Shown piece after piece: positions 3,505 to 21,106 of a DNA stretch of 32,000 nucleotides. The stretch is from Cylindrospermopsis raciborskii Cr2010 (GTDB lineage: Bacteria; Cyanobacteriota; Cyanobacteriia; Cyanobacteriales; Nostocaceae), in NCBI RefSeq assembly GCF_003367075.2, contig NZ_CP065936.1, positions 990,001 through 1,022,000 on the forward strand, written 5' to 3'. The position numbers and the translations under genes were made by a program. A model generated the notes under the pieces. It did not search any database. It saw nothing but the letters and a program-made list of their open reading frames with translations, and was not told the DNA's origin. Every line of letters starts with the position of its first letter. Position 1 is the first letter of the stretch.

Positions 3505-4449
3505 ATGGTTTCGGACACTATTTTATCCCGCAAATATGCAACGCCAATTTTTGCGTTCAAAAAAAAATATATGCTAAGCTTTTCCATTGTTATTCCTACC
3601 TATAATCGTCATGAAAAATTAAAAAATTGTTTGGACTCCCTAGCTGGTCTGCACTACCCAAATCATCAATTTGAAGTTATTATTGTTGACGACGGAAGTT
3701 ACAACTCTTTAGATAGTTTTGTTCAAACCTATCAAGCTCAACTAAATCTTACCCTAATTTGTCAACAAAACTCAGGACCTGCTAAAGCTAGGAATACGGG
3801 TGCTAATGTAGCAAAAGGTCAATACTTAGCATTTACTGATGATGACTGTACTCCCGATCCTAATTGGCTCTATACCCTAGAAAACGCCTTCTCTCAGTTC
3901 CCGATTGCCCTTTTAGGGGGAAAAACAATCAACGGCTTGCCAAAAAATTCTTATTCTACAGCTAGTCAATTACTTATTGATTATATTTATGAGTATTACA
4001 ATATAGATTCTGCGCAACCTAAATTTTTCGCTTCTAATAATTTTGCTGTTGCTAGGGACTTATTTAACCAACTGGGTCAATTTGATATTACTTTTCCTTC
4101 AGCAGCTGGAGAAGACAGGGAATTTTGCGATCGCTGGCTATTTCATGGATATTCTTTACATTATGTTCCTCAGGCAATGGTCTACCATTTCCATGATCTA
4201 AATTTACCGAAATTTTGGCGACAACATTTTAATTATGGCTGTGGTGCATTTTATTATCATCAAATTCGGTCTCAGCGTAATCAAGTATCCATAAAGGTTG
4301 AGCCATTGCACTTTTACTGGCGGTTATTACTTTATCCATTCGGGAAAAAATATCATTACCTGTCCAAAATATTTCTTTCTGGTTTATTATTTATCTCACA
4401 ATTAGCTAACATTTGCGGGTTTTTTAAAACCAAATTGGAAAATATTTAG
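3505..4449 (+). CDS. Family 2 glycosyltransferase (GT-A fold)
   Basis: Motifs are FSIVIPTYNR, VIIVDDGS, GPAKARNTG and FTDDDC (DxD). The true start is probably the internal ATG at 3571 (MLSFSIVIPTYN). Confidence 0.8.
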   Translation: MVSDTILSRKYATPIFAFKKKYMLSFSIVIPTYNRHEKLKNCLDSLAGLHYPNHQFEVIIVDDGSYNSLDSFVQTYQAQLNLTLICQQNSGPAKARNTGANVAKGQYLAFTDDDCTPDPNWLYTLENAFSQFPIALLGGKTINGLPKNSYSTASQLLIDYIYEYYNIDSAQPKFFASNNFAVARDLFNQLGQFDITFPSAAGEDREFCDRWLFHGYSLHYVPQAMVYHFHDLNLPKFWRQHFNYGCGAFYYHQIRSQRNQVSIKVEPLHFYWRLLLYPFGKKYHYLSKIFLSGLLFISQLANICGFFKTKLENI

Positions 4450-4559
4450 TTTACCATCACTAAAAAAAATTTTATGAAAATAGAGCGAAGAGAATTTTTA
4501 CAAAGCGTAGGGTTGGCATTAGAATTTTTTACTAAAAACGATTTTCTGTCGGTGAATTC

Positions 4560-5744
4560 ATGAAAATTTTGCTAATTACTGATTATGCCACACCAACAGG
4601 GGGGGCAGAAATATTGACCATCGCACTAAGAGATGGATTGCGATCGCGCGGTCACGATGCCCGTCTACTTGCTAGTTCTGCTCGTCCTCTGAATGCCCAA
4701 AGCCAAGCAGATTACCATTGTTTTGGCACAACATCTAGTTTTCGTACCTTATTGCAAACAGCTAACTTTTGGGCTTTTAGGAAGTTAAAACAAATCCTGG
4801 CTGAATTTCAGCCTGATGTGGTTCACGTAACACTATTTTTAACTCAACTTTCACCGTTAATACTACCTTTACTCCAAAATATCCCCAGTCTTTACTATGC
4901 AGTTTGGTATCGGTCTATTTGTCCCACTGGTACTAAAATCCTACCTAATGGAACAGCTTGCCAAGTAAAAATGGGTATGGCTTGTTATCAGAATCATTGC
5001 TTACCTTTATGGGATTGGTTGCCATTAATGCTTCAAATGAAATTGTGGCAACGTTGGTGTAATGCCTTCGACTTATTTATAGCCCCTAGTCAAGCTGTAA
5101 AAGAACATTTAATGAAGGCAGGAATTAAATCCGTTGAGATAGTTTGGCATGGCACACCAATTCAACCCCAACGTCCCCCCCTGAGATCACCACCAACAGT
5201 AGCATTTGCCGGACGACTAGTCAAAGAAAAGGGTGCAGAGGTATTGTTAAAAGCTTTTGCTTTGGTAGTGCATCAAATACCAGAAGCAAAGTTATTGCTG
5301 GTGGGAGATGGATCTGAAAGAGAAGCTTTAAAACAAAAAATCAATGACTTAAATATTACCGCTAATGTTTTTATGCCTGGATTAGTGTCACGACTGGAAA
5401 CAGAGAAATTATTCTCTACCGCGTGGGTACAGGTAGTTCCATCTCTGTGGCCGGAACCCTTTGGTACAGTTGTGATTGAAGCTATGATGCGTGGAACCGC
5501 AGTAGTAGTCAGTGCATCTGGTGGTCTGCCTGAGATTGTTAAAAATAATGATACTGGCTTAGTAGTACCATCTAAAAACTATAAAGCATTAGCTGCTGCG
5601 TTGTTGCAGATACTACACAATCGGGAATGGGCAGAACGGATGGGTAAAAGAGCAAGAGAAGTCGCTAAAACTCAGTATAGTCATGATATTTACGTAGATA
5701 GATTTTTAGAAAAATACCAAAAGATATGTTGTATGCGATACTGA
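4560..5744 (+). CDS. Family 4 (GT-B, retaining) glycosyltransferase
   Basis: N-terminus is MKILLITDY...GGAE. The C-terminal EX7E region reads PSLWPEPFGTVVIEAMMRGTAVVVSASGGLPEIV. Confidence 0.85.
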   Translation: MKILLITDYATPTGGAEILTIALRDGLRSRGHDARLLASSARPLNAQSQADYHCFGTTSSFRTLLQTANFWAFRKLKQILAEFQPDVVHVTLFLTQLSPLILPLLQNIPSLYYAVWYRSICPTGTKILPNGTACQVKMGMACYQNHCLPLWDWLPLMLQMKLWQRWCNAFDLFIAPSQAVKEHLMKAGIKSVEIVWHGTPIQPQRPPLRSPPTVAFAGRLVKEKGAEVLLKAFALVVHQIPEAKLLLVGDGSEREALKQKINDLNITANVFMPGLVSRLETEKLFSTAWVQVVPSLWPEPFGTVVIEAMMRGTAVVVSASGGLPEIVKNNDTGLVVPSKNYKALAAALLQILHNREWAERMGKRAREVAKTQYSHDIYVDRFLEKYQKICCMRY

Positions 5745-5772
5745 AATTTTCTATATATATAAATATAAAAAC

Positions 5773-6780
5773 ATGAATTTGTTCACAGAGCTATCAATTT
5801 CGGTGATCATTCCTGTTCACAATGGTGGTGACAGTTTCCGCCAGTGTTTGTCAAGTATTAGCATATCCCAAATTCGTCCCAGAGAAGTTATTGTAGTGGC
5901 TGATGGCGATGCAGATAATTCTTGGCAAGTAGCAACAGACTGGGGTGCTAAAGTTATGAGAGTCAAGGAAAAGAGTGGACCTGCACAAGCGAGAAATTTA
6001 GGGGCAAATGCAGCTCAAGGAGATATCCTGTTTTTTGTGGATGCTGATGTAGCCATAGCTCCAGACACAATCAATCGGGTCAAATTTACCTTTGAAGAAG
6101 ATGTAAATCTAGCAGCATTGATTGGTTCCTATGATGATGCTCCAGGAGCAAGTAATTTTCTTTCTCAATACAAAAACCTTTTTCACCACTATACCCATCA
6201 AAATGCCAATGAGGATGCTTTCACTTTTTGGGGAGCTTGCGGTGCGATTCGCCGTGATGTCTTTTTGGCTATAGGTGGTTTTGATGAAGGTTATCGTCGT
6301 CCTTGTGTGGAAGATATTGAGTTAGGTTATCGTTTAAAAGCAGCAGGGTACAAAATTAAACTAGTTAAGTCATTGCAAGTAAAACACTTGAAACGGTGGG
6401 AAATTATATCTTTAATTAAAGCGGATGTGTGCGATCGCGCTTTACCCTGGACTCAATTGATACTCCGCCAGGGGAAAATGCCTTCCGATCTGAATCTTGG
6501 TTGGTCAAGTCGGCTAAGTGTAGTTCTAGTTTACTTGTTTCTATTGAGTTTAGTTGCTTGTTGGTGGCAGTGGGAACTATTTATTTTTGCTGCCGTTATA
6601 TGTATAGTACTAGTAAGTGTTAATGCGGCAGCTTACCGCTTTTTCGTTGAAAAGCGAGGTGTTTTATTTACGTTTGGCGTGTTATTTTGGCATTGGTTGT
6701 ACTATTTTTACAGTGGTTTAGCCTTTGTAGTGGGTATATTTTTGTTAAAATTCTCCAAAAATACTGGATGGAAAACTTGA
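5773..6780 (+). CDS. Family 2 glycosyltransferase with a C-terminal multi-helix membrane anchor
   Basis: Motifs are ISVIIPVHNGG, VADGDADNS, GPAQARNLG, FVDADV (DxD), VEDIELGYRL and HLKRW (Q/RxxRW-like). The hydrophobic tail is LSVVLVYLFLLSLVACWW...VVGIFLL. Confidence 0.8.
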   Translation: MNLFTELSISVIIPVHNGGDSFRQCLSSISISQIRPREVIVVADGDADNSWQVATDWGAKVMRVKEKSGPAQARNLGANAAQGDILFFVDADVAIAPDTINRVKFTFEEDVNLAALIGSYDDAPGASNFLSQYKNLFHHYTHQNANEDAFTFWGACGAIRRDVFLAIGGFDEGYRRPCVEDIELGYRLKAAGYKIKLVKSLQVKHLKRWEIISLIKADVCDRALPWTQLILRQGKMPSDLNLGWSSRLSVVLVYLFLLSLVACWWQWELFIFAAVICIVLVSVNAAAYRFFVEKRGVLFTFGVLFWHWLYYFYSGLAFVVGIFLLKFSKNTGWKT

Positions 6781-6923
6781 ATTGTCACGGGACAAAAGCT
6801 GTTCGTCATCTAAATTTCTCATATAGTCTACACCTGTAAACGATTACAGCCACTAAAAAGTGCAGTTTAAATGCACGACAGCTTACTCAACAAATTTATA
6901 AAAGTTACGGAGAAGAATTTGTT

Positions 6924-8375
6924 TTGCTACAAGCTAATCAAAAGAAGGTGTTAATTATCGGTGCTGGACCTGCTGGATTAACAACAGCTTACCATCTGGT
7001 TCATCAGGGGGTTTATCCAATTATACTGGAACAAACTAATAAAGTTGGGGGTATTTCCCGTACGGAAACATATAAGGGATATCACATTGATATTGGCGGT
7101 CATAGGTTCTACACTAAAGTTGAAGAAATTCAGCAAATTTGGGTAGAGATATTGGGTAACAACTTTCAAAAAGTTGATAGACTATCGCGCATTTACTACA
7201 ATGGCAAATTCTTTAACTATCCCTTAGAAGTAACTGACGCTTTATCAAACCTAGGATTCATTAAAAGTTTCCTAGTATTACTTAGTTACTTACAAGCTAA
7301 AATCAAACCTGATCCGGTAGAAGAAAATTTTGAACAGTGGGTGTGTAACCGCTTTGGTAAAAGGTTATATGAAACTTTTTTTAAAAGTTATACTGAAAAA
7401 GTTTGGGGTATTCCCTGTACAAAAATTAGAGCAGATTGGGCGGCACAAAGGATTCAAGGAATGTCATTAACAACAACAATTATTAATAGTTTGAAAAAAA
7501 CACAACAAATTAAATCCTTAATTAAGGAATTTTACTATCCAGAATTAGGACCGGGGATGATGTGGGAAAAATGCCAAGAAATAATCTCCAATAAAGGGGG
7601 AACGACTTATTTTTCTACGGTAGTACATCAGGTTTACCACCGAGATCATCGGATTAAAAAAATTACTGTACAACAGGAAAATAAAACTTTTGATTTAGAA
7701 GCTGACCAGTTTGTTTCTAGTATGCCACTAACTGGTTTAATATTAGCGTTAGATCCACCAGCACCAAAAGCAGTTTTGCAAGCAGCAGGCAATTTGAAGT
7801 ATCGAGATTTTTTGATTGTGGCTTTAATAATTAATGAGGTTGATTTATTTCCTGATAACTGGATTTATGTTCATAGTCCAGCGTTTTGTGTAGGAAGGAT
7901 ACAAAATTTCAAAAATTGGAGTCTGGCGATGGTTCCAGATAGAAGTAAAACCTGTGTAGGGATGGAATATTTTTGTAATCAAGGCGATCAACTTTGGTCA
8001 ATGTCAGATAGTGAATTAATTGATTTTGCCAGTAGAGAAATTGTAGGTTTATCTCTATTACAAAATATAAATAAAATCGAAGATGGGACGGTAATTAGAC
8101 AATTAAAAGCCTATCCTGTTTACGATGAGGAATATAGACACAATTTACAGGTCATTCAAGACTATTTAAAAACTTTTAATAATCTCCAAAGTATTGGACG
8201 TAATGGGATGCACCGTTATAATAATCAAGACCATTCCATGTTAACAGGACTATTAGCCGCGAAAAATATTTTAGGAGAGAATCACGACTTATGGGATGTG
8301 AACACAGAACGTTCCTATTATGAGGATATGAAGAGTTCACAAAAAACTAGACCCTGGACTAATCTCAACTCCTGA
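6924..8375 (+). CDS. NAD(P)/FAD-dependent oxidoreductase (amine-oxidase / UDP-galactopyranose-mutase-like Rossmann fold)
   Basis: It has a TTG start with a GGAGAAG RBS 9-15 nt upstream. The dinucleotide fingerprint is VLIIGAGPAGLTTAYHL...LEQTNKVGG. The C-terminal block is GRNGMHRYNNQDHSM. Confidence 0.7.
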   Translation: MLQANQKKVLIIGAGPAGLTTAYHLVHQGVYPIILEQTNKVGGISRTETYKGYHIDIGGHRFYTKVEEIQQIWVEILGNNFQKVDRLSRIYYNGKFFNYPLEVTDALSNLGFIKSFLVLLSYLQAKIKPDPVEENFEQWVCNRFGKRLYETFFKSYTEKVWGIPCTKIRADWAAQRIQGMSLTTTIINSLKKTQQIKSLIKEFYYPELGPGMMWEKCQEIISNKGGTTYFSTVVHQVYHRDHRIKKITVQQENKTFDLEADQFVSSMPLTGLILALDPPAPKAVLQAAGNLKYRDFLIVALIINEVDLFPDNWIYVHSPAFCVGRIQNFKNWSLAMVPDRSKTCVGMEYFCNQGDQLWSMSDSELIDFASREIVGLSLLQNINKIEDGTVIRQLKAYPVYDEEYRHNLQVIQDYLKTFNNLQSIGRNGMHRYNNQDHSMLTGLLAAKNILGENHDLWDVNTERSYYEDMKSSQKTRPWTNLNS

Positions 8376-8448: not shown

Positions 8449-9228
8449 ATGAAGTATGAAAAAATCAGTATCACGTTTCGTCTGAGCTGGGAACTTTTTG
8501 TTCGTAATATGGTGGCTCGCCACCGCAATAGTCAATTGGGCTATCTATGGTTGATTTTGTCGCCTCTGGTATTAGCTGGTACATGGATTTTCTTGAAACG
8601 TAGCGGGAATTTCCACATTCCAGAGACCAATATTCCCTACGGGCCCTATGTAGTCACAGGGGTGTTTCTCTGGCAGGGGTTTTCCCGACAACTTAATAGC
8701 TCCCTATCCCATCTTTCTGCCTTTCGGCACCTATTTAGTAAATATCACTTCCCATGGGAGGCAATCGTCCTGGCGGGTTGGGCTGAAGCCGTCGTTGAGT
8801 TTGCCCTCAGCATGGGTGTTCTCTTGGTGGTGCTGAGGCTGATTGGTTTTGGCACCCTCTCGACCATCCTATTCTCGCTACCTCTGATGGCAAGCCTACT
8901 GTTGTTAGGTGGTGGGGTGGGCCTACTACTAGCCCCCATCGGATTACTTTATGAGGATATTGGACAAGGCACCAATTTATGCCTGCAACTGATGTTTTTC
9001 CTAATTCCCATTGTTTATCCCATGCCCACGGAGGGAATAGGCAAGCTAGTGGTGGAGTGGAACCCTGTGGCTGTGTTACTGGTTGCTGCCCGCGAGACTC
9101 TTTTGATAGGCCGGGTTTCCATGTCCTTCCAGACCATCCTGGCCAGTTTGATATCTACGGGGGTGGCCATTCTGGCTTTAGTCTTTTTGAGGCTGGCCCG
9201 TCCCCATCTCGCCGTGAGGGCTGGCTGA
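8449..9228 (+). CDS. ABC-2 type polysaccharide/glycolipid exporter permease (Wzm/TagG-like)
   Basis: The 259-aa ORF has six predicted hydrophobic helices. The N-terminus (RHRNSQLGYLWLILSPL) is typical of ABC-2 permeases. Its stop overlaps the start of the ATPase (cTGATGg at 9226-9230). Confidence 0.8.
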   Translation: MKYEKISITFRLSWELFVRNMVARHRNSQLGYLWLILSPLVLAGTWIFLKRSGNFHIPETNIPYGPYVVTGVFLWQGFSRQLNSSLSHLSAFRHLFSKYHFPWEAIVLAGWAEAVVEFALSMGVLLVVLRLIGFGTLSTILFSLPLMASLLLLGGGVGLLLAPIGLLYEDIGQGTNLCLQLMFFLIPIVYPMPTEGIGKLVVEWNPVAVLLVAARETLLIGRVSMSFQTILASLISTGVAILALVFLRLARPHLAVRAG

Positions 9229-10538
9229 TGGGTGAGCGCAGTATACTAGAGATTAAGGGCGTTAGCCAGCGGTTTTCCCGCAGCATGCGCCATGCTTTGC
9301 GGTATGGGGTCTATGACATCTTCCAGCAACTCATGCCATCCCAGGGTGATCGGGCCGGACAGCTAAGACCTGGGGAGTTTTGGGCCCTACGTGATGTTAG
9401 TTTTTCCCTCAAGGCCGGGGAGTCATTGGGGATTTTAGGCAATAACGGCGCTGGCAAAAGCACCCTACTGAAGTTAATTGCTGGAATTTATCGGCCCACA
9501 GTCGGACACGTTCGAGTGAGGGGACGCATTGGTGCGATCATCGAGTTGGGCTCAGCTTTTGCCCCCAATCTATCGGGTCGGGAAAATATCCGTCTCCAGG
9601 CCCTGCTCCATGGCTACAGCCCAGGGTTATTACGTCGTCAAATGGAGGATATCCTGGCTTTTGCCGATCTAGGCGACTTTATTGATAGCCCGGTTCAGCA
9701 CTACAGCACCGGCATGCGGGCTCGGCTGGGGTTTGCGGTAGCGGTGCACGGTAACCCCGACCTCTTACTGGTGGATGAGGTACTGGCCGTAGGCGATTTG
9801 TCCTTCCAAAATAAGTGCCTGCGACTGGTAGAAAGGTTTCGCCAACAGGGCGGGGCTGTAGTGTTCGTTGGCCATAATCCTTATCAAATGCAGGCGGCTT
9901 GTGAGCGTGGCATTATCCTCAACCAGGGTTGCATTCACTTCGATGGTTCGATTGTAAATGCCATCGATCTGGTGCTAGATGGCGCTGAATCAGCTTCACA
10001 CCAAGACCCTACTTTGTCTACTGCGGGTCAGTTCCCAATCCAGGCGGCTAGTGATGCCAGCGCTTGCCTCCTCTTTGAGGTAGAAAGTACGGCCATTGCC
10101 TATCAACCACCGATCCCTAAGGCAAGGCACGGATCAGCTACAATAGATTTCACCTTGGTTGTCCACCGATCCCCAATCAGGCTGAACGGGCTAGCTGCCA
10201 TTTTCCCTCAGCAGGGTTCCCATGCGATCGCAGTATCTATCAGCGATGCGGTGGTTTTATCCCCGGGTTTACAAAAACTGACGATGGCAATCCCATCTTT
10301 GCCCCTGATACCTGGCAGTTACCTGGTAAAACTCTGTTTGATCGATGAAAGTACTTCCTTTTCGCTATGGAACCAGGGTTGGTCAGATAGGCCGCTAGAT
10401 TTCCACATCCCTGGAGAAGGATGTTCCCACGGAAATATCGCAAAGTCCCTGTCCTCAAAGATTTTTCTTGCCAGCCAGATTGATGTAGAAACCTCCTTAC
10501 CGGGTGACAAGCGGGTTGAAGATGAGATGTGGCAATAA
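9228..10538 (+). CDS. ABC exporter ATP-binding protein (Wzt/TagH-like) with a ~190-aa C-terminal extra domain
   Basis: Walker A is GNNGAGKST, the signature is YSTGMRARLGFA and Walker B is LLLVDEVLAVGD. The start is set at ATG 9228 (MGERSILEIKGV). The ORF-track start at 8979 lies inside the permease gene. The C-terminal region contains LPLIPGSYLVKLCLID, which resembles Wzt_C. Confidence 0.85.
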   Translation: MGERSILEIKGVSQRFSRSMRHALRYGVYDIFQQLMPSQGDRAGQLRPGEFWALRDVSFSLKAGESLGILGNNGAGKSTLLKLIAGIYRPTVGHVRVRGRIGAIIELGSAFAPNLSGRENIRLQALLHGYSPGLLRRQMEDILAFADLGDFIDSPVQHYSTGMRARLGFAVAVHGNPDLLLVDEVLAVGDLSFQNKCLRLVERFRQQGGAVVFVGHNPYQMQAACERGIILNQGCIHFDGSIVNAIDLVLDGAESASHQDPTLSTAGQFPIQAASDASACLLFEVESTAIAYQPPIPKARHGSATIDFTLVVHRSPIRLNGLAAIFPQQGSHAIAVSISDAVVLSPGLQKLTMAIPSLPLIPGSYLVKLCLIDESTSFSLWNQGWSDRPLDFHIPGEGCSHGNIAKSLSSKIFLASQIDVETSLPGDKRVEDEMWQ

Positions 10539-10604: not shown

Positions 10605-11531
10605 GTGAATCGTTTATTTGCAGACCTGGAATTACAAAAACAGTTCTTGTCTACTGGATATATCCAGGCCCCCATACTCTCTAACCTGGAAGTAAACTAC
10701 CTACTAGGTGAAATTAATAAGCTATGCCCCCATGATAGCTTTAATCCCCACCTGGACAAAAAGTACTATATTACCTACCATTGCACGTCCCTTGATAAAA
10801 ACTTGGATTATAGAAAGAAGGCTTTCGATCTGATAAAAGATATCTTTGAGCCCTATTTAAAGGGTTTCATGCCCGATTTTGAAATCCTGTCCTGTAACTT
10901 TTTTATCAAGCCTCCCTACACAGGGATGTTGAGAATTCACCAGAACTGGCCAGTTCTAGATTTAGATGATACCAGCGTTACACTGTGGTGCCCTTTACAG
11001 GATGTGGATGCCCATAACGGTACCCTGCATCTCGTTCCTGGTAGCCATAAAATTCTTCCCCATGTAGAAAGTATAGAAGCGGCCGTTGGTTTCCCCTACT
11101 TCAAAGACTTCGAAAACGCCCTGGTAGAAAAGTATCTTCAGCCTATGATATTGAAGGCTGGGGAAGGTCTGATCTTTGATGAGTCCTTAATTCATTGGAC
11201 GCCAGCCAATAACTCGAGTAGGCCCCGCATCGCTGTCCAGATTACGGCTTTCCCAAAGAACAAGACTCCCGTTCTATACCTACGTGACAAGCAGCATCCA
11301 GAACGATTTGAGAAATTCGAAATCTCTCCAGAATTCTATCTGACGGAGGAGCTAAACGAGCATGCTGTGCGCCAACATCCGCGCAGGAGTCTGGGATTTG
11401 TAGAGAACAAAAATCGCTCCATATCCGAAGCAGAGTTCATTCAATTACTCAAACAAGGGAATGAGATTCGTCATCAGATCTACGCCAGAAAACAACTTTT
11501 TAACTCCGAGGAAATTCCATGCGAAATATAA
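10605..11531 (+). CDS. PhyH-fold (phytanoyl-CoA dioxygenase family) Fe/2OG-oxygenase-like protein, paralogue 1
   Basis: It has a GTG start with an AAAGGAG RBS. Family blocks are VTLWCPLQDVDAHNGTLHLVPGSHK and FDESLIHWTPANNSSRPR. The HxD position reads H112-Q-N114. Confidence 0.7.
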   Translation: MNRLFADLELQKQFLSTGYIQAPILSNLEVNYLLGEINKLCPHDSFNPHLDKKYYITYHCTSLDKNLDYRKKAFDLIKDIFEPYLKGFMPDFEILSCNFFIKPPYTGMLRIHQNWPVLDLDDTSVTLWCPLQDVDAHNGTLHLVPGSHKILPHVESIEAAVGFPYFKDFENALVEKYLQPMILKAGEGLIFDESLIHWTPANNSSRPRIAVQITAFPKNKTPVLYLRDKQHPERFEKFEISPEFYLTEELNEHAVRQHPRRSLGFVENKNRSISEAEFIQLLKQGNEIRHQIYARKQLFNSEEIPCEI

Positions 11532-12391
11532 TCTCGAATCAGAGTCAAAACTCCCATCTGATTGAGAAGGGCTATGTTCAGCATCAGCTTTTATCAGCAT
11601 CGGAAATTCAGTATTTATTGGGTGAGGTTCGTAAGCTTTATCCCGAAAGTATGTTTCTACCCAAAGCAGATGAATCTTCTGATCCTGACATTACGACGAG
11701 CTATCTGGCTAGTGATATAGCCCTGCGGGAACAGGTATCTCAAATTATCCGGGAAACCCTGTCCCCCCACCTAGACACCCTGCTGGAGAATTACCGTATT
11801 CTTGCCTGTGGATTATTTGTTAAGGCCCCAAAGGGTGGATGGTTTGATCTGCATTATCACCCAACTGCTGTTGAAGATCTAAAACACTGGGTTATTGATA
11901 TCTGGTGTCCTTTACAGGAAACCGATTTTTCCAACGGTACATTTTGTGCTGTTCCCGGAAGTCATAAAATCTTTCCCAGGATTATTGACTGCTCTCCCCA
12001 AGATCCTCCTTTTTACCAAGGCTATGCTGAGGAGATTCGTCATCAGTATTCGGTGGCGATACCGGCAAAAGCCGGAGAAGCTATTCTGTTTGAAGACAGT
12101 TTGCTCCACTGGTCTCCACAAAATTTGACAGATTCACCCCGCTATGCGATTCACTGTACCTGTATTCCCAGGGAAGCAACAGCCGTTTATATTTATCTTA
12201 ATCCAGGGGATTCTAAATTTGAAATCTATGAAGTCACCGATCAGTTTTTTATTGAACGCACACCTTCAACCGAGCATGATAACCTGAAACTGCTGGCAAT
12301 TTTGCCTAATAAAAATCCTTCCTACACCTTTGAGGAGTTTAAAGAGAGAATGGAAAATTGTAATACAATTAGGAAATCGATGTTTTGTTGA
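11519..12391 (+). CDS. PhyH-fold oxygenase-like protein, paralogue 2
   Basis: It overlaps the upstream gene by 13 nt. Family blocks are IDIWCPLQETDFSNGTFCAVPGSHK and FEDSLLHWSPQNLTDSPR. The HxD position reads H112-Y-H114. Confidence 0.7.
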   Translation: MRNIISNQSQNSHLIEKGYVQHQLLSASEIQYLLGEVRKLYPESMFLPKADESSDPDITTSYLASDIALREQVSQIIRETLSPHLDTLLENYRILACGLFVKAPKGGWFDLHYHPTAVEDLKHWVIDIWCPLQETDFSNGTFCAVPGSHKIFPRIIDCSPQDPPFYQGYAEEIRHQYSVAIPAKAGEAILFEDSLLHWSPQNLTDSPRYAIHCTCIPREATAVYIYLNPGDSKFEIYEVTDQFFIERTPSTEHDNLKLLAILPNKNPSYTFEEFKERMENCNTIRKSMFC

Positions 12392-12459
12392 ATTTCAAAC
12401 CTAGCTAACCTTACCCATAAATTTGATTAGGTATAAACTAATACTTTCGGGAAATAGAT

Positions 12460-14397
12460 ATGCGTCAAGTTATTCGAGACAAGGACCTAAACCACCTGCT
12501 CCTCAAGAGAGGGTATATTCAGCAACCACTGCTACTAGACTCGGAAGTTAGTTATTTGCTAGAGGAGACTCAGAAAGCCTATCCTGAAAGTAGGTTTTCT
12601 CCCGATAAAGCCAATATTTCCCAGTCCTATGTCGCCAACAGTTACACAGATCAATCGGAGGAAGTCCGTGCGATTGGTCCTAAGATTATACAGAATATTT
12701 TATCGCCCCATATCGAGGATCTACTGGATGACTACCGGATTCTCTACTGCGGGCTATTCGTTAAAGCTCCAAGGGGTGGCTGGCTGGATATTCATTATCA
12801 TCCAACCGTAGTGGAGGATTTAAAGCACTGGATCATCGATATCTGGTGTCCATTGCTGGATACAGACCTATCTAATGGCACCCTCTGTGTTGTTCCGGAG
12901 AGCCATAAAATCTTCCCAGAGGTTATTGACTATCCTTCCGAGACGGCTCTTTTTTGTCGAGACTATAAGCGAAATATTCGTGAAAAGTATTCCATTGCCC
13001 TGCCATCAAAAGCTGGGCATGGGGTGATTTTTGAAGATAGTTTACTCCATTGGTCACCCCAGAATTTGACAAATTCTGCCCGTTACGCGGTTCATTGCAC
13101 CTGTATTCCTAGAGAAGCAATTGCTGTTCATATTCATTTTGACTCCAGGTCTCCTCAACAGTTTGAAATCTATGAAGGGACAGATAAATTTTTTGAAGAA
13201 GAATTTGGTAGACCCGTACCACGACCTGGGGATCTAAAGCTACTTAAAATTATTCCTAATCAGAATCGTCCCTACGGGTTTGAAGAGTTTCAAGAGCGCA
13301 TGGGGAATGCAGCCCAACTGCGCCAAGAACTTTATCCAGATAGTTACTATGTTTCTCCGGTAGAATTTGCTAACCTGCTTCAGAAAGAGCAGGAAATGTA
13401 CCGGGAAGTTCACTATCCTATCCCGATCTCTGAGGAATTAGCTGCAGAGCCTATCCTCATGGATGCGGCTACGCGGTTATTAAATGGTCCACCGCAGGAG
13501 GTACAACCCCAAACAGCCAAGATACCACCCTTACTGAGCCGCATCACTGCCACTGTCAAGCGGTTACTTAGGGCGCAGTCTCGGTCAACGCGGAACATTT
13601 CCCAGCCGTCCGAGGTGGTTCGGGATGTACGTTCCCCTGTTAACCAACATACCGTTGCCGATGTTAAACGCTACTACGAAAAATGGACCCGTAGCTATAT
13701 CGAAGGTTTTGGAGAGGTTTTTCAGGGATCAAGACCCACCTCTACGGACGAATTGCTTGAGTATTTGATTCAATCCGCCAGGTTAGAAGATGGGATTAGG
13801 GTCTTAGACGCGGGTTGTGGAGTGTGTGGACCAGCCATTAGATTTGCTGAACAGTTTAACTTAAATATTGAAGCCCTCACCCTTGCCCAGGTGCAGGTTG
13901 AGGAATCTCAAAAACGCATTAAAGCTAAGGGATTGGAACACCAGATTAATGTCAGGCAGGGCGATTTTCATCACCTGGCTCAGTTGTATCCGGCTAACAG
14001 TTTTGACCGAGTCCTATTTCTGGAATCCTTATGCCATGCTGAAGATTATCGTCGAGCTTTAGAACAGGCTAAAAAGGTCCTTAAACCGGGTGGCTTTCTC
14101 TATATCAAGGATTTTTACGCCGTTGATCACCGTTCTTGCCCTGAGTTACTGGAGTTACATGCTAAAGATCTACGGGAGTTAAACCGAATCTACTGCCTGG
14201 TAATGCCAGATCTTCCAGGTATGGTAGATATAATCAGCGAGTTAGGATTTGACATCTATTACATGCGTAAGCCTATGTATGCCTATTCTCCGGCGGCATG
14301 GAAAAACTTTATGCGGCATACCAATACCTTTTGGGTTAGAGAGTCAGGAAAGGCGATCGAAGACATTGAATTTCTGGCCTATAAGCCCTTGAATTGA
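12460..14397 (+). CDS. Fusion protein: N-terminal PhyH-fold domain (paralogue 3) + linker + C-terminal class I SAM-dependent methyltransferase
   Basis: The first ~290 aa closely parallel paralogue 2 (IDIWCPLLDTDLSNGTLCVVPESHK; FEDSLLHWSPQNLTNSAR). The C-terminus has SAM motif I VLDAGCGVCGP, the acidic loop and KPGGFLYIKDF. Confidence 0.75.
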   Translation: MRQVIRDKDLNHLLLKRGYIQQPLLLDSEVSYLLEETQKAYPESRFSPDKANISQSYVANSYTDQSEEVRAIGPKIIQNILSPHIEDLLDDYRILYCGLFVKAPRGGWLDIHYHPTVVEDLKHWIIDIWCPLLDTDLSNGTLCVVPESHKIFPEVIDYPSETALFCRDYKRNIREKYSIALPSKAGHGVIFEDSLLHWSPQNLTNSARYAVHCTCIPREAIAVHIHFDSRSPQQFEIYEGTDKFFEEEFGRPVPRPGDLKLLKIIPNQNRPYGFEEFQERMGNAAQLRQELYPDSYYVSPVEFANLLQKEQEMYREVHYPIPISEELAAEPILMDAATRLLNGPPQEVQPQTAKIPPLLSRITATVKRLLRAQSRSTRNISQPSEVVRDVRSPVNQHTVADVKRYYEKWTRSYIEGFGEVFQGSRPTSTDELLEYLIQSARLEDGIRVLDAGCGVCGPAIRFAEQFNLNIEALTLAQVQVEESQKRIKAKGLEHQINVRQGDFHHLAQLYPANSFDRVLFLESLCHAEDYRRALEQAKKVLKPGGFLYIKDFYAVDHRSCPELLELHAKDLRELNRIYCLVMPDLPGMVDIISELGFDIYYMRKPMYAYSPAAWKNFMRHTNTFWVRESGKAIEDIEFLAYKPLN

Positions 14398-15400: not shown

Positions 15401-16441
15401 ATGCCCATGTATAAATACTTGAAGATTAACCAATGGTGGGGCAACAAGATCAGTCCCCTAATGGCCTATGCCTTTCTGGGTGTATCTCATGATTCGACTC
15501 AACCGTCTGCCCTCTCCCTGACGGTGCAGTTACTGCTGTTTTTGCTGGCCTGTTTTGGCATTGCTGGTTTCGGTCATCTCTTTCTTGATGCCTTTGATCA
15601 GCGGGAGGATCGCCTGAACGGTAAGTCCAATGGCTGGCTGAGCCTAGGTAAGGTCAAGGCTAGCCTGGTACTTTCTTTACTGTTTATAACGGCCTGGCTG
15701 CCACTCTACTTTCTCCCCCATTGGGCCACGGTACGGTGGCTGGTGGCCGGAGAGTTTATCCTATTTATAATCTATGCCGTGCCACCTTTGCGGTTTAAGG
15801 AACGGGGCATGCCAGGCATTATTGTTGATGGCCTCTATGGCTATGTAATGCCTGCCCTTGTAGCTTGGACGATATTTGCTCCTGAACCTCAAGGATTATC
15901 AGCTTTTACCTATCCGGTATGCCTGCTGCTCTGGCTGCTTCCCAAGGGTATACGCCATATACTGCGTCATCAGTACTATGATTTTGATGGCGATTGTGGG
16001 GCCGGAGTTAGCACCTTTGCCGTGCGCCATGGTCGCACCGCCACCCTAAAGGTGATTCAAAACTATCTGCTGCCCATTGAGCTGCCGGCTATGGTGCTGG
16101 CGCTGACGGTGCTTTCCTGGCCAATGATTTTACCTATGATTGGCTTCATGGCCTTTTCCGGTTGGGAATGGAGAGTGCTGCGTCAACAGTGGCTGCAGCC
16201 CGTACCCCCGCCCCGTCTCTGGAAACCGATTGAATGGTCAGAATGGCTGGGTATGCGGTTCCTGTCTACCTTCACCGAACTCCTGCTACCCCTGCTTTCT
16301 CTATGGGTTATGTTACTGCGCCATCCATCCCTATGGCCCCTGTCATTGGTTTACCTCCTGATTGCCGGTTGGCCCTTAAAGCTCTGGTGGGGTGAAGTGA
16401 GTCCCCTGGTATTGAAACGATTCGATGGAGCCCAGCGATGA
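15401..16441 (+). CDS. UbiA-superfamily prenyltransferase-like integral membrane protein
   Basis: The protein is multi-pass. The first Asp-rich motif is LDAFDQREDRLNGK (DxxDxxxD). YAVPPLRFKERG follows. The second motif is YDFDGDCGAGVSTFAVRHG. Confidence 0.7.
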   Translation: MPMYKYLKINQWWGNKISPLMAYAFLGVSHDSTQPSALSLTVQLLLFLLACFGIAGFGHLFLDAFDQREDRLNGKSNGWLSLGKVKASLVLSLLFITAWLPLYFLPHWATVRWLVAGEFILFIIYAVPPLRFKERGMPGIIVDGLYGYVMPALVAWTIFAPEPQGLSAFTYPVCLLLWLLPKGIRHILRHQYYDFDGDCGAGVSTFAVRHGRTATLKVIQNYLLPIELPAMVLALTVLSWPMILPMIGFMAFSGWEWRVLRQQWLQPVPPPRLWKPIEWSEWLGMRFLSTFTELLLPLLSLWVMLLRHPSLWPLSLVYLLIAGWPLKLWWGEVSPLVLKRFDGAQR

Positions 16442-16569
16442 CTTCCCAGGTCTTACTTCACCCCGTTATCAAGGTTCCGGCAGATGTCCTGGAGCGGTTT
16501 CGAGGTAAGGCATCGCTTCTAGCGACCGATCCTGTATACGCCCCCTATAGGGCTGAATACCTAAACTAA
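16438..16569 (+). CDS. Hypothetical 43-aa small ORF, translationally coupled (ATGA overlap) to the UbiA-like gene
   Basis: ATG 16438 overlaps the TGA at 16439-16441. The ORF (MTSQVLLHPVIKVPADVLERFRGKASLLATDPVYAPYRAEYLN) fills almost all of the spacer before the GT4 gene. It is below the ORF-track length cutoff and I recognise no homology. Confidence 0.25.
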   Translation: MTSQVLLHPVIKVPADVLERFRGKASLLATDPVYAPYRAEYLN

Positions 16570-16578
16570 GGAGACGAT

Positions 16579-19095
16579 ATGACCCGACGCATCATTGTTA
16601 GTCTACCGGAGTGGAGTCTGGGAGGCGCTCACATCTGTGCTGCCAACTTGGTTCGGGGTCTACGGGCCAGAGGAGAAGATGCCCGTCTGTTGTTAACCGA
16701 GGAACACACCCCCCTGGTCAATCATCCCCGCTATATTCCACCGCTACCTGCTGATTTACCCATTGAACTGATTCGCCTTACCTCCCATGACCATTGGAGC
16801 GATGCCTGGATGGCGATTGAAAGGTTCCTGGAGGAACAGGCTCCCTGCATCTATGTTCCCGTTGTTGATTTTCGTTCTACTTGCATTACAGCCCGCCTCT
16901 CCTCCCGGGTCGTGGTTGTGGCAACCATGATGACGGACTATCGATTAGAGTACGAACATGTGGAGCGATTGGTTCGCCACTGGGATGCGGTAGTGGCTGT
17001 GAACTCAGCCATTCAGCGGCGGGCGGCCCTCTGGGTGCCCTGGCTGGCGGCTAACCTGGTCACGATTCCCATCTGTGTACCCATGCCCGGTGATGTACCC
17101 ATCCGCTCAGCCCAGGGCAAACTCCGGTTGGTATACCATGGTAGGTTATGCCAGTACCAAAAGCGCAGCCTCGACTTCATCGATCTGCTTGAGCAACTTG
17201 AAGTCCGTAGTGTAAATTTTTGTCTTACCCTAATCGGCGATGGTGAGTGCCGTCCAGCCCTTGAAAAGGCAGCGACCCGGTTTATCTCCGATGGACGCTT
17301 GGTACTATCAGGTACCCTTCCCTACGAGCAAACCCTGGAGGCCCTCAGGCATCAGGACGTTTATATCCTGCCTTCAGAATTTGAAGGCACTCCCAATGCC
17401 CTGCTAGAGGCAATGGCCTATGGTTGTGTACCCGTGGTTTCCGACATCGAAACCCTAACGGATATCGTAGCCGAGGGTAAGACAGGATTTCGCTGTGCGA
17501 TCGGAGATATGCAGGCCTTTGCTGCGGCTGTGGCTCGACTAGCCGCTGACCCGGTGGAACGAGTCGCCATGGCTGAGCGGGCCGCGACCAGTGTACGTCA
17601 GCTTGGCTACGACCTGGAAACCATGATTGATCGGTGGCAAGCCCTATTTGATCGCCTGGAGACCCGTACCAGACATGCCCGATATCGTCCCCGTGGCTTT
17701 ATGACTGCCCCCCCCGCTACCTTTGGTGGAGTTTCAATCCTGCCAGGTGAGTACAGTTCCTTCGCACGACTGGTGAATCAGGTTCCCCTCTGGCCTGAAC
17801 CCCGGACCGCCACTCGGGTAAGCCAGCACCACCGCCCCCATATCGCGCCCCTCAGTGAGCATCGCATCATTCTAGCCACCACAAAAGGTCGCATTAGTGG
17901 TGTTGATGTTTTTGCGATAAACCTAGTTCAGGCACTTCTGTCTCGCGGTCTAAAGGCGGAGATTTTAGTTACCCGTCCCGATGAAAAGGTTCCAGATCCA
18001 ATGCCCTTTCCAGATCATATACCCGTACGTACCCTTGCTGTTGAACCAGGGAGCAGTTGGCAAAAACGATGGGCGCTGCTACGCCGTACCCTCATAGAAC
18101 ATAGTCCCTGCATCTACATTCCCAACTATGACTGGTACCATTCTGGCATCTGCGGTACTCTACCAGCAACTGTAAAGGTGATTGGTATTGCCCACAGCGA
18201 TGACCCCGCTCACTATGCCCACTGTTTGAAGCTCGGGTCTACCTGGAACGGGATAGTAGCTGTTAGTAAGGTAGTTGCCAATCATATTAGGGATCTGGCC
18301 CCTGAGTTGGCAGACAGATTATACACTATTCCCTATGGTGTGGGTCTGCCTTCCTCTCCCATAAGTACCGTGCGATCACCCCATGCGCCCCTGCGATTAC
18401 TCTATGCTGGTCGGTTAATCCGTTATCAGAAGCGGGTGTTTGACCTACTGTGTATCCTTGATGCTTTAGCAACCCGTAATGTGTCTGTGGAACTCACTGT
18501 TGTGGGCAGTGGTCCGGAGGAGCGGGAATTTCTCCAGTCCTCGGCCCAGTCCCTAGTCAGTGGCAGGATGCGCTTCATGGGGGGTATGGCGAACCACCAC
18601 GTGCAAACGCTGATGGTACAGGCAGATATTTTTCTGTTACCATCGGCCTTTGAGGGGTTGCCTGTGAGCCTTTTGGAGGCTATGGCCCACGGTACTATAC
18701 CCGTGGTAACCCACTCTCGTAGTGGGGTAGATGAGGTCATACGCCACGGTGAAAATGGTTTTTTAGTAGCCGTGGGTGATATAGATGCCTTTGCTAACTA
18801 CATTACCCATCTGTCCGAAAACCCTCAACAGATGGCGCAGATGGCACAGGCAGCCCGCCAGACTATTGAAACCGGGGGATTTACCATTCATGCCATGACG
18901 GAGTCTTATCTGCACCTAATGGAGCAGATAGTGTCACAGCCCTTCTCCCGTCCAGTCACAGGCATACTTCCCCCAGAGGATATACGAGGCTGGCGTTCGT
19001 GGCTACCACCGGAGCTTCCTAGTCCAACTGTTGCTGTTCAAAGTCTGAGAAAACGGGTCGAACTAATATTAAAGGGGCTAGGATCCTATTTCTAG
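16579..19095 (+). CDS. Bi-domain family 4 glycosyltransferase (two complete GT-B/GT4 modules in one 838-aa protein)
   Basis: There are two EX7E regions: PSEFEGTPNALLEAMAYGCVPVVSD and PSAFEGLPVSLLEAMAHGTIPVVTH. Each is preceded by its own Rossmann-like N-domain. A GGAGA RBS lies upstream. Confidence 0.85.
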   Translation: MTRRIIVSLPEWSLGGAHICAANLVRGLRARGEDARLLLTEEHTPLVNHPRYIPPLPADLPIELIRLTSHDHWSDAWMAIERFLEEQAPCIYVPVVDFRSTCITARLSSRVVVVATMMTDYRLEYEHVERLVRHWDAVVAVNSAIQRRAALWVPWLAANLVTIPICVPMPGDVPIRSAQGKLRLVYHGRLCQYQKRSLDFIDLLEQLEVRSVNFCLTLIGDGECRPALEKAATRFISDGRLVLSGTLPYEQTLEALRHQDVYILPSEFEGTPNALLEAMAYGCVPVVSDIETLTDIVAEGKTGFRCAIGDMQAFAAAVARLAADPVERVAMAERAATSVRQLGYDLETMIDRWQALFDRLETRTRHARYRPRGFMTAPPATFGGVSILPGEYSSFARLVNQVPLWPEPRTATRVSQHHRPHIAPLSEHRIILATTKGRISGVDVFAINLVQALLSRGLKAEILVTRPDEKVPDPMPFPDHIPVRTLAVEPGSSWQKRWALLRRTLIEHSPCIYIPNYDWYHSGICGTLPATVKVIGIAHSDDPAHYAHCLKLGSTWNGIVAVSKVVANHIRDLAPELADRLYTIPYGVGLPSSPISTVRSPHAPLRLLYAGRLIRYQKRVFDLLCILDALATRNVSVELTVVGSGPEEREFLQSSAQSLVSGRMRFMGGMANHHVQTLMVQADIFLLPSAFEGLPVSLLEAMAHGTIPVVTHSRSGVDEVIRHGENGFLVAVGDIDAFANYITHLSENPQQMAQMAQAARQTIETGGFTIHAMTESYLHLMEQIVSQPFSRPVTGILPPEDIRGWRSWLPPELPSPTVAVQSLRKRVELILKGLGSYF

Positions 19096-19154: not shown

Positions 19155-19931
19155 ATGGCCATATCAAAACGTCGCACCTTCAAAGATTCGGTTCTTCAGG
19201 CAGCCTTCCGAACCCAGGGCTATGTGGTAGTAAATTTGGATGAATCGGAGAAAATGAATCGCTTAGCTGAGGCTTATCGAAGTCTCTATCCATACAATCA
19301 GGAAGGTTGTGTATTTTCCTGTCATGATACGGATTGCAATCGCCGGTTCAAGGCACAAAACTTCGTGCGTCAAGTGATTGGGGAAAAAGCATCGGTTTTT
19401 TTGGATAATTACAAATTTGTCAATAGTTCCTTTGTTGCCAAATACCCTGGTGAAAATGGTGCAATCCCCCCACATACTGACTTCACCCTTGTAGACGATA
19501 GGTACTACTCTGCCGTGTCCATCTGGGTCCCTTTGACGGAAACCACTGCTGCTGCAGGACGCTTGCATGTATTACCAGGATCCCATCGTTATACACCCCT
19601 ATGTGGGTCAAATCTTTTCAGAAAGTATACAGACATCAAACTCTCCAGCATGACAGAGATTGAGCTGGAGATTGGACAGGCTGTCTGTTACGACCCGCGA
19701 ACCATTCACGCCTCCCCTGCCAACACATCATCGAGTCCCCGGATTGCCGGAAATTGTGTGCTGATCCCAGAGGAAGCTGACCTCTGGCATGTAACTTGTC
19801 AAGATCAGGACATTCTGATCTATGCCGTTGACGATGGCTTCTACAGTGGCCTAGGCCTCACAATTACTCACAAGCTATTGAGCAATTACAGAGTCATTCA
19901 TGCGGAACACTTTGAAAGATTCGTCCTTTAA
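19155..19931 (+). CDS. PhyH-fold Fe(II)/2OG dioxygenase, paralogue 4 (canonical triad)
   Basis: The triad is H107-T-D109 (PPHTDF) with the distal His in DPRTIHASPANTSSSPR. Other family blocks are SIWVPLTE and RLHVLPGSHR. Confidence 0.7.
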   Translation: MAISKRRTFKDSVLQAAFRTQGYVVVNLDESEKMNRLAEAYRSLYPYNQEGCVFSCHDTDCNRRFKAQNFVRQVIGEKASVFLDNYKFVNSSFVAKYPGENGAIPPHTDFTLVDDRYYSAVSIWVPLTETTAAAGRLHVLPGSHRYTPLCGSNLFRKYTDIKLSSMTEIELEIGQAVCYDPRTIHASPANTSSSPRIAGNCVLIPEEADLWHVTCQDQDILIYAVDDGFYSGLGLTITHKLLSNYRVIHAEHFERFVL

Positions 19932-21106
19932 GTTACCTTAAAGTCTTTCTGACAAATGACAATGTAGCTTAAAGAAGTACACCAAACTATACTTTGTATT
20001 ATTTGGGCATGAATTGAATAGGTAATAAAGGTAGGAATCAATAGAGTTAAGCAAAGCAAGATTAATACTAAGAGGTTAAATCTATTTGGTCTTTTAAAAT
20101 TTAGCTCGATTATTGCTAATAACAGGAAAACTAACATCACATTATCATAAATTAGATGATAGGTCCATAGTCGACCTATTCCAGAAGCAATAGCAAAGAG
20201 AAAGAGCAAAGAGCAATCCTTAAATAAATAAAATAACCACACAGTAACAACAGTAGCAACTATAGCTAATAAAATTGTTGCTAAGAGTGGGTTAATTCCA
20301 AACTTGAGCAGAACATTGATTCCCGAATATCCTCTATCAACATAATATTGGGAAACCTTAACAACTTTCTCAATCATATAAATAGGAGAAACTTTTACAA
20401 TTAATCCTATTATTGAACTAGAAACCACAATATATAAACAGCAAGCTATGACCGCATTAATTCTTTTCTTGATGATGGGAATAAAAAAGTAAAGGGCAGA
20501 AATATTTGGTTTGAGTAAAGCCAACCCTAAAATTAACCCAGCTGATATGTTAGCATTGCCCTGCAATAGCCAAAACATTAGTACTAATAAAGCATTGATA
20601 ATAATGCCATATTGTCCAATACCCAGAGTAGTGGTATGAGTACCAAGTGACAAACAAGTAACTATTGTAAACCAGGCTTTTAATTTTCCATAGGGTTTGC
20701 CGATTTGATAAGCAAAAATGGCTAAAATAACTAGAGAGATGGCATTTAAAAGAACATGATACCACAGGGTTAATTCAAAAGGAATGGGTGGGAAAAATAT
20801 GAAACCTGAGAAAAAAGCCCAAGCTGGATATCCCCCAGATGTTACAGCACCCAGTTGAGGATCTATCAAAGGTGAACCGTTGGTAATATCATAGGGATAT
20901 AAACCATAATAAATATACCTTTGTTCTTTCCAACGAGTATATAAATCTGTAGATTGTGCATTTATTATCAATTTATAAAAACCTATGATAAGGTAAAGAA
21001 AACAGAGTATGCTTAAAGCTGCGGATAGGCCAAAGATAATTTTTGAGGGGGTAAGCTTTTTAAAAAACAGTAGTTTATTCATTCTCTTGCTTAAAACTGA
21101 CTTCAT
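19928..21106 (-). CDS. Polytopic membrane protein, GT-C-like (DUF2029/GT87-like polyprenyl-phosphate-sugar-dependent glycosyltransferase candidate)
   Basis: It has ~11-12 hydrophobic helices. The first-loop motif is STDLYTRWKEQRYIYYGLYPYD (D..Y......G..pY pattern). The gene is very AT-rich. An alternative start is at 21082. Confidence 0.45.
   Translation of the reverse strand: MKSVLSKRMNKLLFFKKLTPSKIIFGLSAALSILCFLYLIIGFYKLIINAQSTDLYTRWKEQRYIYYGLYPYDITNGSPLIDPQLGAVTSGGYPAWAFFSGFIFFPPIPFELTLWYHVLLNAISLVILAIFAYQIGKPYGKLKAWFTIVTCLSLGTHTTTLGIGQYGIIINALLVLMFWLLQGNANISAGLILGLALLKPNISALYFFIPIIKKRINAVIACCLYIVVSSSIIGLIVKVSPIYMIEKVVKVSQYYVDRGYSGINVLLKFGINPLLATILLAIVATVVTVWLFYLFKDCSLLFLFAIASGIGRLWTYHLIYDNVMLVFLLLAIIELNFKRPNRFNLLVLILLCLTLLIPTFITYSIHAQIIQSIVWCTSLSYIVICQKDFKVT

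Follow-up and report, generated by a model that had tools for sequence, protein, structure and literature searches.

Coupled substitutions at the HxD position and at residue 193 in PhyH-fold proteins of a cyanobacterial glycan-export gene cluster

The stretch of Cylindrospermopsis raciborskii Cr2010 DNA analysed here (contig NZ_CP065936.1, positions 990,001 to 1,022,000 of the forward strand; 32,000 nucleotides, hereafter the window) carries a glycan-biosynthesis cluster with a Wzm/Wzt-type ABC transporter and four paralogous proteins of the PhyH fold, which we call W1 to W4 in gene order. PhyH enzymes and other 2-oxoglutarate (2OG) oxygenases bind Fe(II) with an HxD/E...H triad and hold 2OG with an arginine about 11 residues beyond the distal histidine. 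We find that W4 has this triad (HTD), that W1 (HQN) and W2 and W3 (both HYH) keep the two histidines and carry Asn or His in place of the aspartate, and that among their relatives this exchange at residue 114 is coupled to the appearance of an acid at residue 193, four residues before the distal histidine. The fold and the cofactor site are PhyH-like and the HxD triad is replaced; what is new is the 114–193 coupling and the HxN and HxH sites themselves. In the view that we favour, at about even odds, W1, W2 and the PhyH domain at the N terminus of W3 work as Fe(II)/2OG enzymes of the PhyH type, with rewired first and second coordination spheres.

All four proteins score above the 22-bit gathering threshold of the Pfam PhyH model PF05721, at 57.3, 46.1, 41.0 and 67.7 bits for W1 to W4, and AlphaFold2 (AF2) models of W1 and W2, with predicted local distance difference test scores of 92.5 and 90.3, are confident PhyH-type double-stranded β-helices. 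The best Foldseek matches of both models are SnoK/SnoN, HygX, EvdO2, AviO1, MysH, EctD, AndA and SyrB2, with a probability of 1.00 against SnoK/SnoN, HygX, EctD, MysH and SyrB2. Their structural neighbours also include a trypanosome RESC RNA-editing subunit (8fni_14 / 8fnc_14) and the TlxI/TlxJ heterodimer (7vbq). Translation verifies the motifs given in an initial annotation of this DNA, H112-Q-N114 in W1, H112-Y-H114 in W2 and W3 and H107-T-D109 in W4, together with its distal His and Arg (H197 and R208 in W1, W2 and W3; H185 and R196 in W4) and its spacing of 16–17 residues from the proximal His to the WxPL block, which we measure as 16, 17, 17 and 17 in W1 to W4. The residues of the 2OG site are all present in W1–W3, namely the Lys and Trp of strands I and III (K102 and W128/129), a Ser/Thr two residues beyond the distal His (S/T199) and the Arg (R208); in PhyH and EctD, the Ser and Arg of this set bind the C5-carboxylate of 2OG (PMC2871039).

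Three lines of alignment agree that the HxD carboxylate is replaced by Asn in W1 and by His in W2 and W3, as first proposed. A MAFFT alignment of the four paralogues places N114 and H114 on the Asp position; profile-to-PDB alignments match the HQN of W1 to HxD in MysH, SnoK and human PhyH, and the HYH of W2 to HSD in EctD and to HQD in ThoJ and PHYHD1; and the strand register is the same in the W1 and W2 AF2 models, in which strand 109–112 ends at H112. DSSP assignments from these models give strand 187–192, coil 193–196 and strand 197–199, so that residue 193 lies in the turn entering the distal-His strand. A shifted register, in which D110 of W2 would serve as the carboxylate, is suggested by a phmmer/hmmsearch match to D177-L-H-Y of human PhyH; this is an edge-of-alignment match with a two-residue shift and is ruled out by the EctD, ThoJ and PHYHD1 alignments, MAFFT and the AF2 register, all of which take H112 as the proximal His. 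D110 is particular to this clade; the site is P, T or N in other HxH lineages.

A survey of homologues shows that position 114 is conserved rather than simply variable, which the initial annotation had left to be decided. Of 112 W1 homologues, which reach down to 36% identity, about 105 have HQN, with the consensus IHQNWP, the exceptions being a few HQH and HRN and one HQD; D[LI]H-x-H is found in 20 of 20 W2 homologues, a small clade annotated as cyanobacterial. Across 74 loci of GTDB species representatives, 196 PhyH-like open reading frames (ORFs) divide into 90 HxD, 70 HxN and 28 HxH. An exhaustive profile search yields 3,063 representatives at E ≤ 1e-3, of which 290 reach E ≤ 1e-30, and the best 150 contain 229 domains, comprising 165 HxD, 48 HxN, 15 HxH and one HxG. 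K102, W128, H197, S/T199, N202 and R208 are each retained in at least 97% of the HxD (n = 253) and HxN (n = 214) domains and at least 90% of the HxH domains (n = 63), and the same limits hold for both histidines, proximal and distal. Judged from this sequence conservation, the Asn and His substitutions are family signatures, beyond chance and not noise. The source annotations of the homologues read "phytanoyl-CoA dioxygenase family protein" or "hypothetical" throughout, and a scan of W1 against NCBIfam returns no model specific to either class.

Purifying selection acts on these genes. Relative to Leptolyngbya orthologues (91–93% identical), the ratio of nonsynonymous to synonymous substitution rates (dN/dS) is 0.14 for W1, 0.15 for W2 and 0.23 for W3, compared with 0.23 for canonical W4 and 0.22 for Wzt in the same orthologue set. 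These values rule out pseudogenes or relaxed selection, and W1–W3 look like constrained, functional proteins rather than decayed copies. W2 and W3 are mutually closest paralogues, but at 54% identity and with dS saturated at 2.8 they stem from an old duplication and not the recent one first supposed; loci of Aphanizomenon, Pseudanabaena and Leptolyngbya keep both copies as distinct genes.

In a comparison of every alignment column between the HxD, HxN and HxH classes, made with no prior assumptions, the column that best separates them is 193, followed by 212, four residues beyond the 2OG arginine. Residue 193 is mostly H (71), N (41), S (31), Q (28) or T (22) in the HxD class, with only 5 acidic residues (2%), and is Asp or Glu in 213 HxN domains (99.5%) and in 43 HxH domains (68%), with Asn in a further 11. 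At residue 212, 209 of 214 HxN domains have Gln, the HYH proteins of cyanobacteria have His, and HxD domains have a small or hydrophobic residue; the combination at 114, 193 and 212 is thus N/E/Q in W1 and H/D/H in W2 and W3, the W4 equivalents being D109, P181 and N200. By mutual information with average product correction (MI-APC), the pair 114–193 ranks 15th of 43,956, and all pairs above it lie in a gap-rich C-terminal extension; 114–212 and 193–212 rank 98th and 196th. Among HxD relatives that carry Q212, 18 of 19 have Q, H, T, N, S or G at 193, which indicates that the switch at 193 tracks residue 114 and not merely clade, and N-to-H variants within the HxN background (P0062 and P0197) retain D193.

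The presence of an acid at 193 when 114 is not Asp argues that the carboxylate has been moved, not lost. The original statement that W1–W3 lack the metal-binding carboxylate therefore holds for the HxD position and not for the site as a whole, where, by the class counts and MI-APC, Asp or Glu at 193 compensates; by the same token the proposed HxH...H arrangement is not simply a 3-His, or a 2-His, site. E119/D120, which had been named as a possible substitute carboxylate, does not fill that role, since column 119 is acidic in 85% of the canonical HxD class as well.

In the rewired site that we favour, the metal would be held by H112, H197 and a neutral third ligand, namely the carbonyl oxygen of Asn114 in W1 and a ring nitrogen of His114 in W2 and W3, and the negative charge of the HxD aspartate would be relocated to residue 193, so that the site would keep its net charge. 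HxD relatives have a hydrogen-bond donor at 193 (H, N, S, Q or T), consistent with support of the Asp ligand from the second shell; in W1–W3 this donor–acceptor pair would be inverted, with N114-NH2 or H114-NH donating a hydrogen bond to the D/E193 carboxylate. Q212 (with Asn114), or H212 in the cyanobacterial HYH proteins, would complete the remodelled pocket, and 2OG would bind as usual via R208, S/T199, K102 and W128. W1–W3, canonical W4 and the W3 methyltransferase are then predicted to tailor the glycan built by the cluster glycosyltransferases and exported by Wzm/Wzt, acting on its repeat units, a chain-end cap or a prenyl-linked part. The simplest role may be that of tailoring enzymes of an ABC-transporter-exported glycan, possibly forming a chain-end cap together with the methyltransferase; a prenyl-linked moiety is kept as a possible substrate because a UbiA-family gene is a constant neighbour and a polyprenyl synthase an occasional one.

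Several observations weigh against this picture. The acid at 193 is replaced by Asn or Arg in one third of HxH domains, mainly sphingomonad, and clade history could explain part of the covariation; in a rough neighbour-joining tree with Fitch parsimony the distances are saturated and independent origins are not reliably countable, and we do not rely on it. We infer the proximity of 114 and 193 from their covariation, from the position of 193 in the turn into the distal-His strand and from the presumed SyrB2 equivalent described below; profile-to-PDB searches find no solved structure of the HxN or HxH class. The assignment of a substrate draws on synteny alone, and a search of the available literature library finds no paper on HxN or HxH PhyH proteins, on 114–193 coupling or on PhyH proteins in Wzm/Wzt clusters. 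Finally, engineered Asp-to-His, Asp-to-Ala and Asp-to-Gly forms of prolyl 4-hydroxylase are inactive (PMC2767507), so that a neutral ligand need not support activity; the same result argues that the substitution on its own would be deleterious, which makes the paired change meaningful.

The 114–193 covariation is equally expected if D/E193 itself ligates the metal, forming a classical 2-His-1-carboxylate triad of new topology (H112, D193, H197) with N114 or H114 and Q212 or H212 as second-shell residues or gates for substrate or oxygen. The location of 193, in the turn leading to the distal-His strand at the metal end of the barrel, is compatible with this arrangement. Ser231 of SyrB2 (four residues before His235), which we take to be the equivalent of residue 193, presumably lines the chloride pocket near the iron; a literature search on this pocket found nothing specific. 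We nonetheless consider a relocated triad unlikely, since the hydrogen-bond donors that canonical relatives hold at 193 better fit a second-shell role, and N114 and H114 are competent ligands and nearly invariant. If W1–W3 were instead non-catalytic, they might be binding or scaffold subunits in hetero-oligomers with a canonical PhyH protein or a methyltransferase, for example as chain-length or termination adaptors. The 13-nt overlap of W1 and W2, which suggests translational coupling, the joining of an HxH domain to a methyltransferase in W3 and the fusion elsewhere of mixed HxD and HxN domains (two or three per chain) are in keeping with such assemblies, as are PhyH-fold precedents (the TlxI/TlxJ heterodimer and the trypanosome RESC subunit) and the dead Asp-to-His prolyl 4-hydroxylase. 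Against this, the cofactor-contacting residues are kept in all classes at the levels given above, the dN/dS of W1 and W2 is 0.14–0.15, the replacement residues N114, D193 and Q212 are near-invariant, and HxN is often the sole PhyH-like gene, many loci being HxN-only and some HxH/HxN-only. Loss of catalysis in favour of a pure scaffold role, as entertained in the initial annotation, is thus rather improbable.

A cupin-like, non-oxidative or non-iron enzyme is conceivable chiefly for the HYH clade, in which H112, H114, H197 and H212, with D110 and E119, might bind Mn, Ni, Zn or Cu in the manner of 3-His(-1-Glu) cupins and act on sugars as isomerases, epimerases or lyases. Cupin motif 1 is G(x)5HxH(x)3-4E, and at the sequence level G106-x5-H-x-H-P-x3-E119 of W2 and W3 matches it; only this clade has the fourth His, at 212. 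We regard this as very unlikely, given that the acid at 119/120 occurs equally in canonical HxD relatives, that the full 2OG set (K102, W129, S199, R208) is kept and that the nearest structures are 2OG enzymes and not small cupins. Least probable of all, and hardly credible to us, is a halogenase-like site in which a halide, another anion or an anionic substrate group such as sulfate or carboxylate is held by the amides of N114 and Q212. Such a site would draw on the kinship of W1–W3 with SyrB2 and CytC3 within the PhyH family, on the absent carboxylate ligand and on the APS (adenosine 5'-phosphosulfate) kinase of this cluster and sulfotransferase-like genes in clusters elsewhere. The bulky Asn or His would fill the pocket, however, an anion would be disfavoured by the acidic D193 nearby, and the window ORFs scanned show neither a carrier protein nor a nonribosomal peptide synthetase (NRPS) context. 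W1–W3 have Asn or His and not the defining Ala/Gly, in agreement with the first reading that they are not halogenase-like, and only one HxG is found among some 230 related domains.

W1–W3 share with PhyH-family members (human PhyH, PHYHD1, EctD, MysH, SnoK/SnoN), which are their best matches in sequence and structure, the fold, the 2OG-binding Lys, Trp, Ser/Thr and Arg, both histidines and an HxSxxN motif, and differ in having Asn or His for Asp, an acid four residues before the distal His and Gln or His four residues beyond the Arg, the last two being untypical of canonical members. EvdO1/O2, AviO1, HygX and SnoK/SnoN, which are among the top structural matches, act on the sugars of oligosaccharide or anthracycline antibiotics, and the PDB match EvdMO1 (6ec3) is, like W3, a fusion of a methyltransferase and a PhyH-type domain, though in the opposite order; these sugar-tailoring oxygenases are canonical HxD enzymes of secondary-metabolite clusters, whereas W1–W3 are encoded in a Wzm/Wzt glycan-export cluster. 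The halogenases SyrB2, CytC3 and CmaB belong to the same Pfam family and are natural 2OG enzymes without a first-shell carboxylate, but they have Ala/Gly plus a halide and carrier-bound substrates where W1–W3 have Asn/His, a compensating acid and no carrier protein. The 3-His and 3-His-1-Glu cupin-type enzymes (cysteine dioxygenase, Dke1, germin-type proteins) provide a neutral third ligand at a mononuclear non-haem site in a related β-barrel, and methylphosphonate synthase, with a 2-His-1-Gln site, provides an amide; all of these enzymes work without 2OG, in contrast to W1–W3, which keep the entire 2OG set. Human aspartate/asparagine β-hydroxylase (AspH) is a natural, active 2OG hydroxylase with an iron site of two His and no carboxylate ligand (PMC13168262, PMC10947486), which establishes that natural 2OG hydroxylases can work without one; unlike W1–W3, it comes from another 2OG subfamily, offers no side chain in place of the lost ligand and has a protein substrate. 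WbdD-type chain terminators of ABC-transporter-dependent O-antigen synthesis (PMC3482155) resemble the window in having a methyltransferase gene beside wzm/wzt and an extended Wzt (with Wzt_C in related loci), but no kinase or coiled-coil ruler domain is recognised here, and the methyltransferase is fused to a PhyH-fold domain.

The natural exceptions to the 2OG carboxylate site that we know of are the halogenases (Ala/Gly plus halide) and AspH (two His), and exchanging the Asp for His, Ala or Gly by engineering usually abolishes activity. W1–W3 and their relatives would add to these a large, phylogenetically broad and constrained natural set in which charge and ligand field are redistributed at a non-haem iron site, and residues 114, 193 and 212 offer a testable design rule for enzyme engineering and annotation. 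More tentatively, and in our view doubtful, HxN...D193...Q212 and HxH...D193...H212 might constitute new natural classes of 2OG enzyme, with 2-His-1-Asn and 3-His iron centres backed by a second-shell carboxylate, whose altered ligand field would direct reactions other than hydroxylation alone, on a cell-surface glycan after or during its export or at the prenyl-linked end of that glycan. Were this so, desaturation, epimerisation, C–C or C–O coupling and anion transfer would be candidate reactions, and the product could be a terminal cap read by the carbohydrate-binding domain of Wzt.

Table 1. Genes and active-site codons of the W1–W4 cluster, in window coordinates (position 1 is the first nucleotide of the window).
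Feature	Position	Strand	Description
APS kinase	2416-3015	-	at cluster edge
Glycosyltransferase (GT) group: GT2, GT4, GT2 and FAD oxidoreductase, PRK07208 / UDP-galactopyranose-mutase-like	3505..8375	+	upstream of wzm
Wzm-type ABC-2 permease	8449..9228	+	
Wzt-type ABC ATPase	9231..10538	+	C-terminal extension of ~185 aa
W1	10605..11531	+	308-aa PhyH-fold protein, 'IHQNWP' (HxN) class; K102, H112, N114, W128, D192, E193, H197, T199, R208, Q212
W1 codons H112-Q113-N114	10938..10946	+	Asn where the metal-binding Asp belongs
W1 codon E193	11181..11183	+	co-varying acid; distal His H197 at 11193-11195
W1 codon Q212	11238-11240	+	
W2	11519..12391	+	290-aa PhyH-fold protein, 'D[LI]HYH' (HxH) class; D110, H112, H114, D193, H197, S199, R208, H212
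W2 codon H114	11858-11860	+	
W2 codon D193	12095-12097	+	
W3	12460..14397	+	645-aa fusion of N-terminal PhyH-fold HxH domain and C-terminal methyltransferase; H197 and R208 also present
W3 codon H112	12793-12795	+	
W3 codon H114	12799-12801	+	
W3 codon D193	13036-13038	+	
W3 codon H212	13093-13095	+	
TnpB / IS605 OrfB remnant	14737-15342	+	201-aa ORF with Cas12f1-like TNB domain, in the ~1-kb W3-UbiA gap
UbiA-family membrane prenyltransferase-like protein	15401..16441	+	
Double GT4 glycosyltransferase	16579..19095	+	838 aa
W4	19155..19931	+	canonical paralogue; K96, H107-T-D109, W124, D180-P181, H185, S187, R196, N200
GT87-like (GT-C type) membrane glycosyltransferase	19928..21106	-	

The genes downstream of wzm are ordered Wzt, W1, W2, W3, TnpB remnant, UbiA-family protein, double GT4, W4 and GT87-like protein. 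W1 begins with GTG, 7 nt past an AAGGAG ribosome-binding site, and W2 starts within the end of W1, the overlap extending to the W1 stop. In W3, the PhyH domain spans approximately residues 1–290 and a class I S-adenosylmethionine-dependent methyltransferase approximately residues 430–560; the linker of about 110 residues has no Pfam match. The extension of the window Wzt likewise has no Pfam match, although Wzt_C is seen in orthologous loci. The longest Wzt ORF, 8979-10538 (+), would overlap wzm by 250 nt if translation began at 8979; a start at 9231 (MGERSILEIKGV...) agrees with the ABC domain and with homologues. The gap that holds the TnpB ORF in the window is only about 130 bp in the 91%-identical Leptolyngbya locus (L010), which identifies this ORF as a recent insertion remnant. 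GC content is 52–56% across Wzt and the double GT4 (9001–10000 and 16001–19000) versus 35–45% in the remaining window, which suggests a mosaic origin of the cluster.

The window ORFs scanned include no carrier, adenylation or condensation domain and show no NRPS or polyketide synthase neighbourhood, and no sulfotransferase domain is recognised in the window. The exported product may be sulfated: an APS kinase also lies at the edge of three other loci (L008, L014 and L029), and weak Sulfotransfer_3-like genes adjoin Wzt in a further three (L004, L005 and L024). The UbiA-family protein of the window gives only weak, generic prenyltransferase matches and has no PDB relative by sequence. Its pairing with a GT87-like GT-C protein recurs in two cyanobacterial relatives (L008 and L009) and recalls a system in which a polyprenyl-phosphopentose synthase and a GT-C enzyme add periplasmic pentofuranose (PMC11127046).

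The closest genome is a Leptolyngbya metagenome-assembled genome (MAG), with a W1 orthologue of 91% identity. The HxN class as a whole is found in Cyanobacteria, Bacteroidota, Acidobacteriota, Proteobacteria (Alpha- and Gamma-), Actinomycetota and Planctomycetota, including a Kuenenia MAG. In all of these groups, HxN genes recurrently stand beside Wzm/Wzt and a UbiA-family gene, the latter being the most constant neighbour, and depending on lineage are accompanied by a CMAS-like or class I methyltransferase, a cytochrome P450, a short-chain dehydrogenase/reductase, a polyprenyl synthase, GT2 or GT4; a Wzt_C carbohydrate-binding domain is present in the related Wzt of Aphanizomenon and Sphingorhabdus loci. 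PhyH-like paralogues with a UbiA-family protein and a methyltransferase or P450 thus form a recurring, uncharacterised tailoring module of ABC-transporter-dependent glycan clusters in at least six phyla. PhyH-family genes of unexplained role are also reported from lipopolysaccharide cassettes of Xanthomonas, the one relevant mention that the literature searches gave.

HxN is the sole PhyH-like gene at many of these loci, and these, with the HxH/HxN-only loci, rule out obligate pairing with a canonical paralogue as a general rule. Three sphingomonad loci, L034, L035 (Sphingorhabdus soli) and L041 (Blastomonas marina), have six PhyH-like paralogues around Wzm/Wzt(Wzt_C), all of them HxH or HxN; several of these have Asn or Arg at 193, and two are without the 2OG arginine. 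Elsewhere, two or three PhyH-like domains stand in tandem on single chains of 550–1,470 residues, with HxD and HxN types combined (P0134, P0136–P0138, P0140, P0147 and others), for example in the order HAD, HTD, HQN. A different fusion is found in L004 (12234-14138), where a canonical HQD PhyH domain is followed by a C-terminal region of about 330 residues that, judged by eye, resembles a prenyltransferase or terpene-cyclase α-α repeat; this gene adjoins a polyprenyl synthase, a fusion of UbiA with a carbohydrate-binding module (CBM) and a P450.

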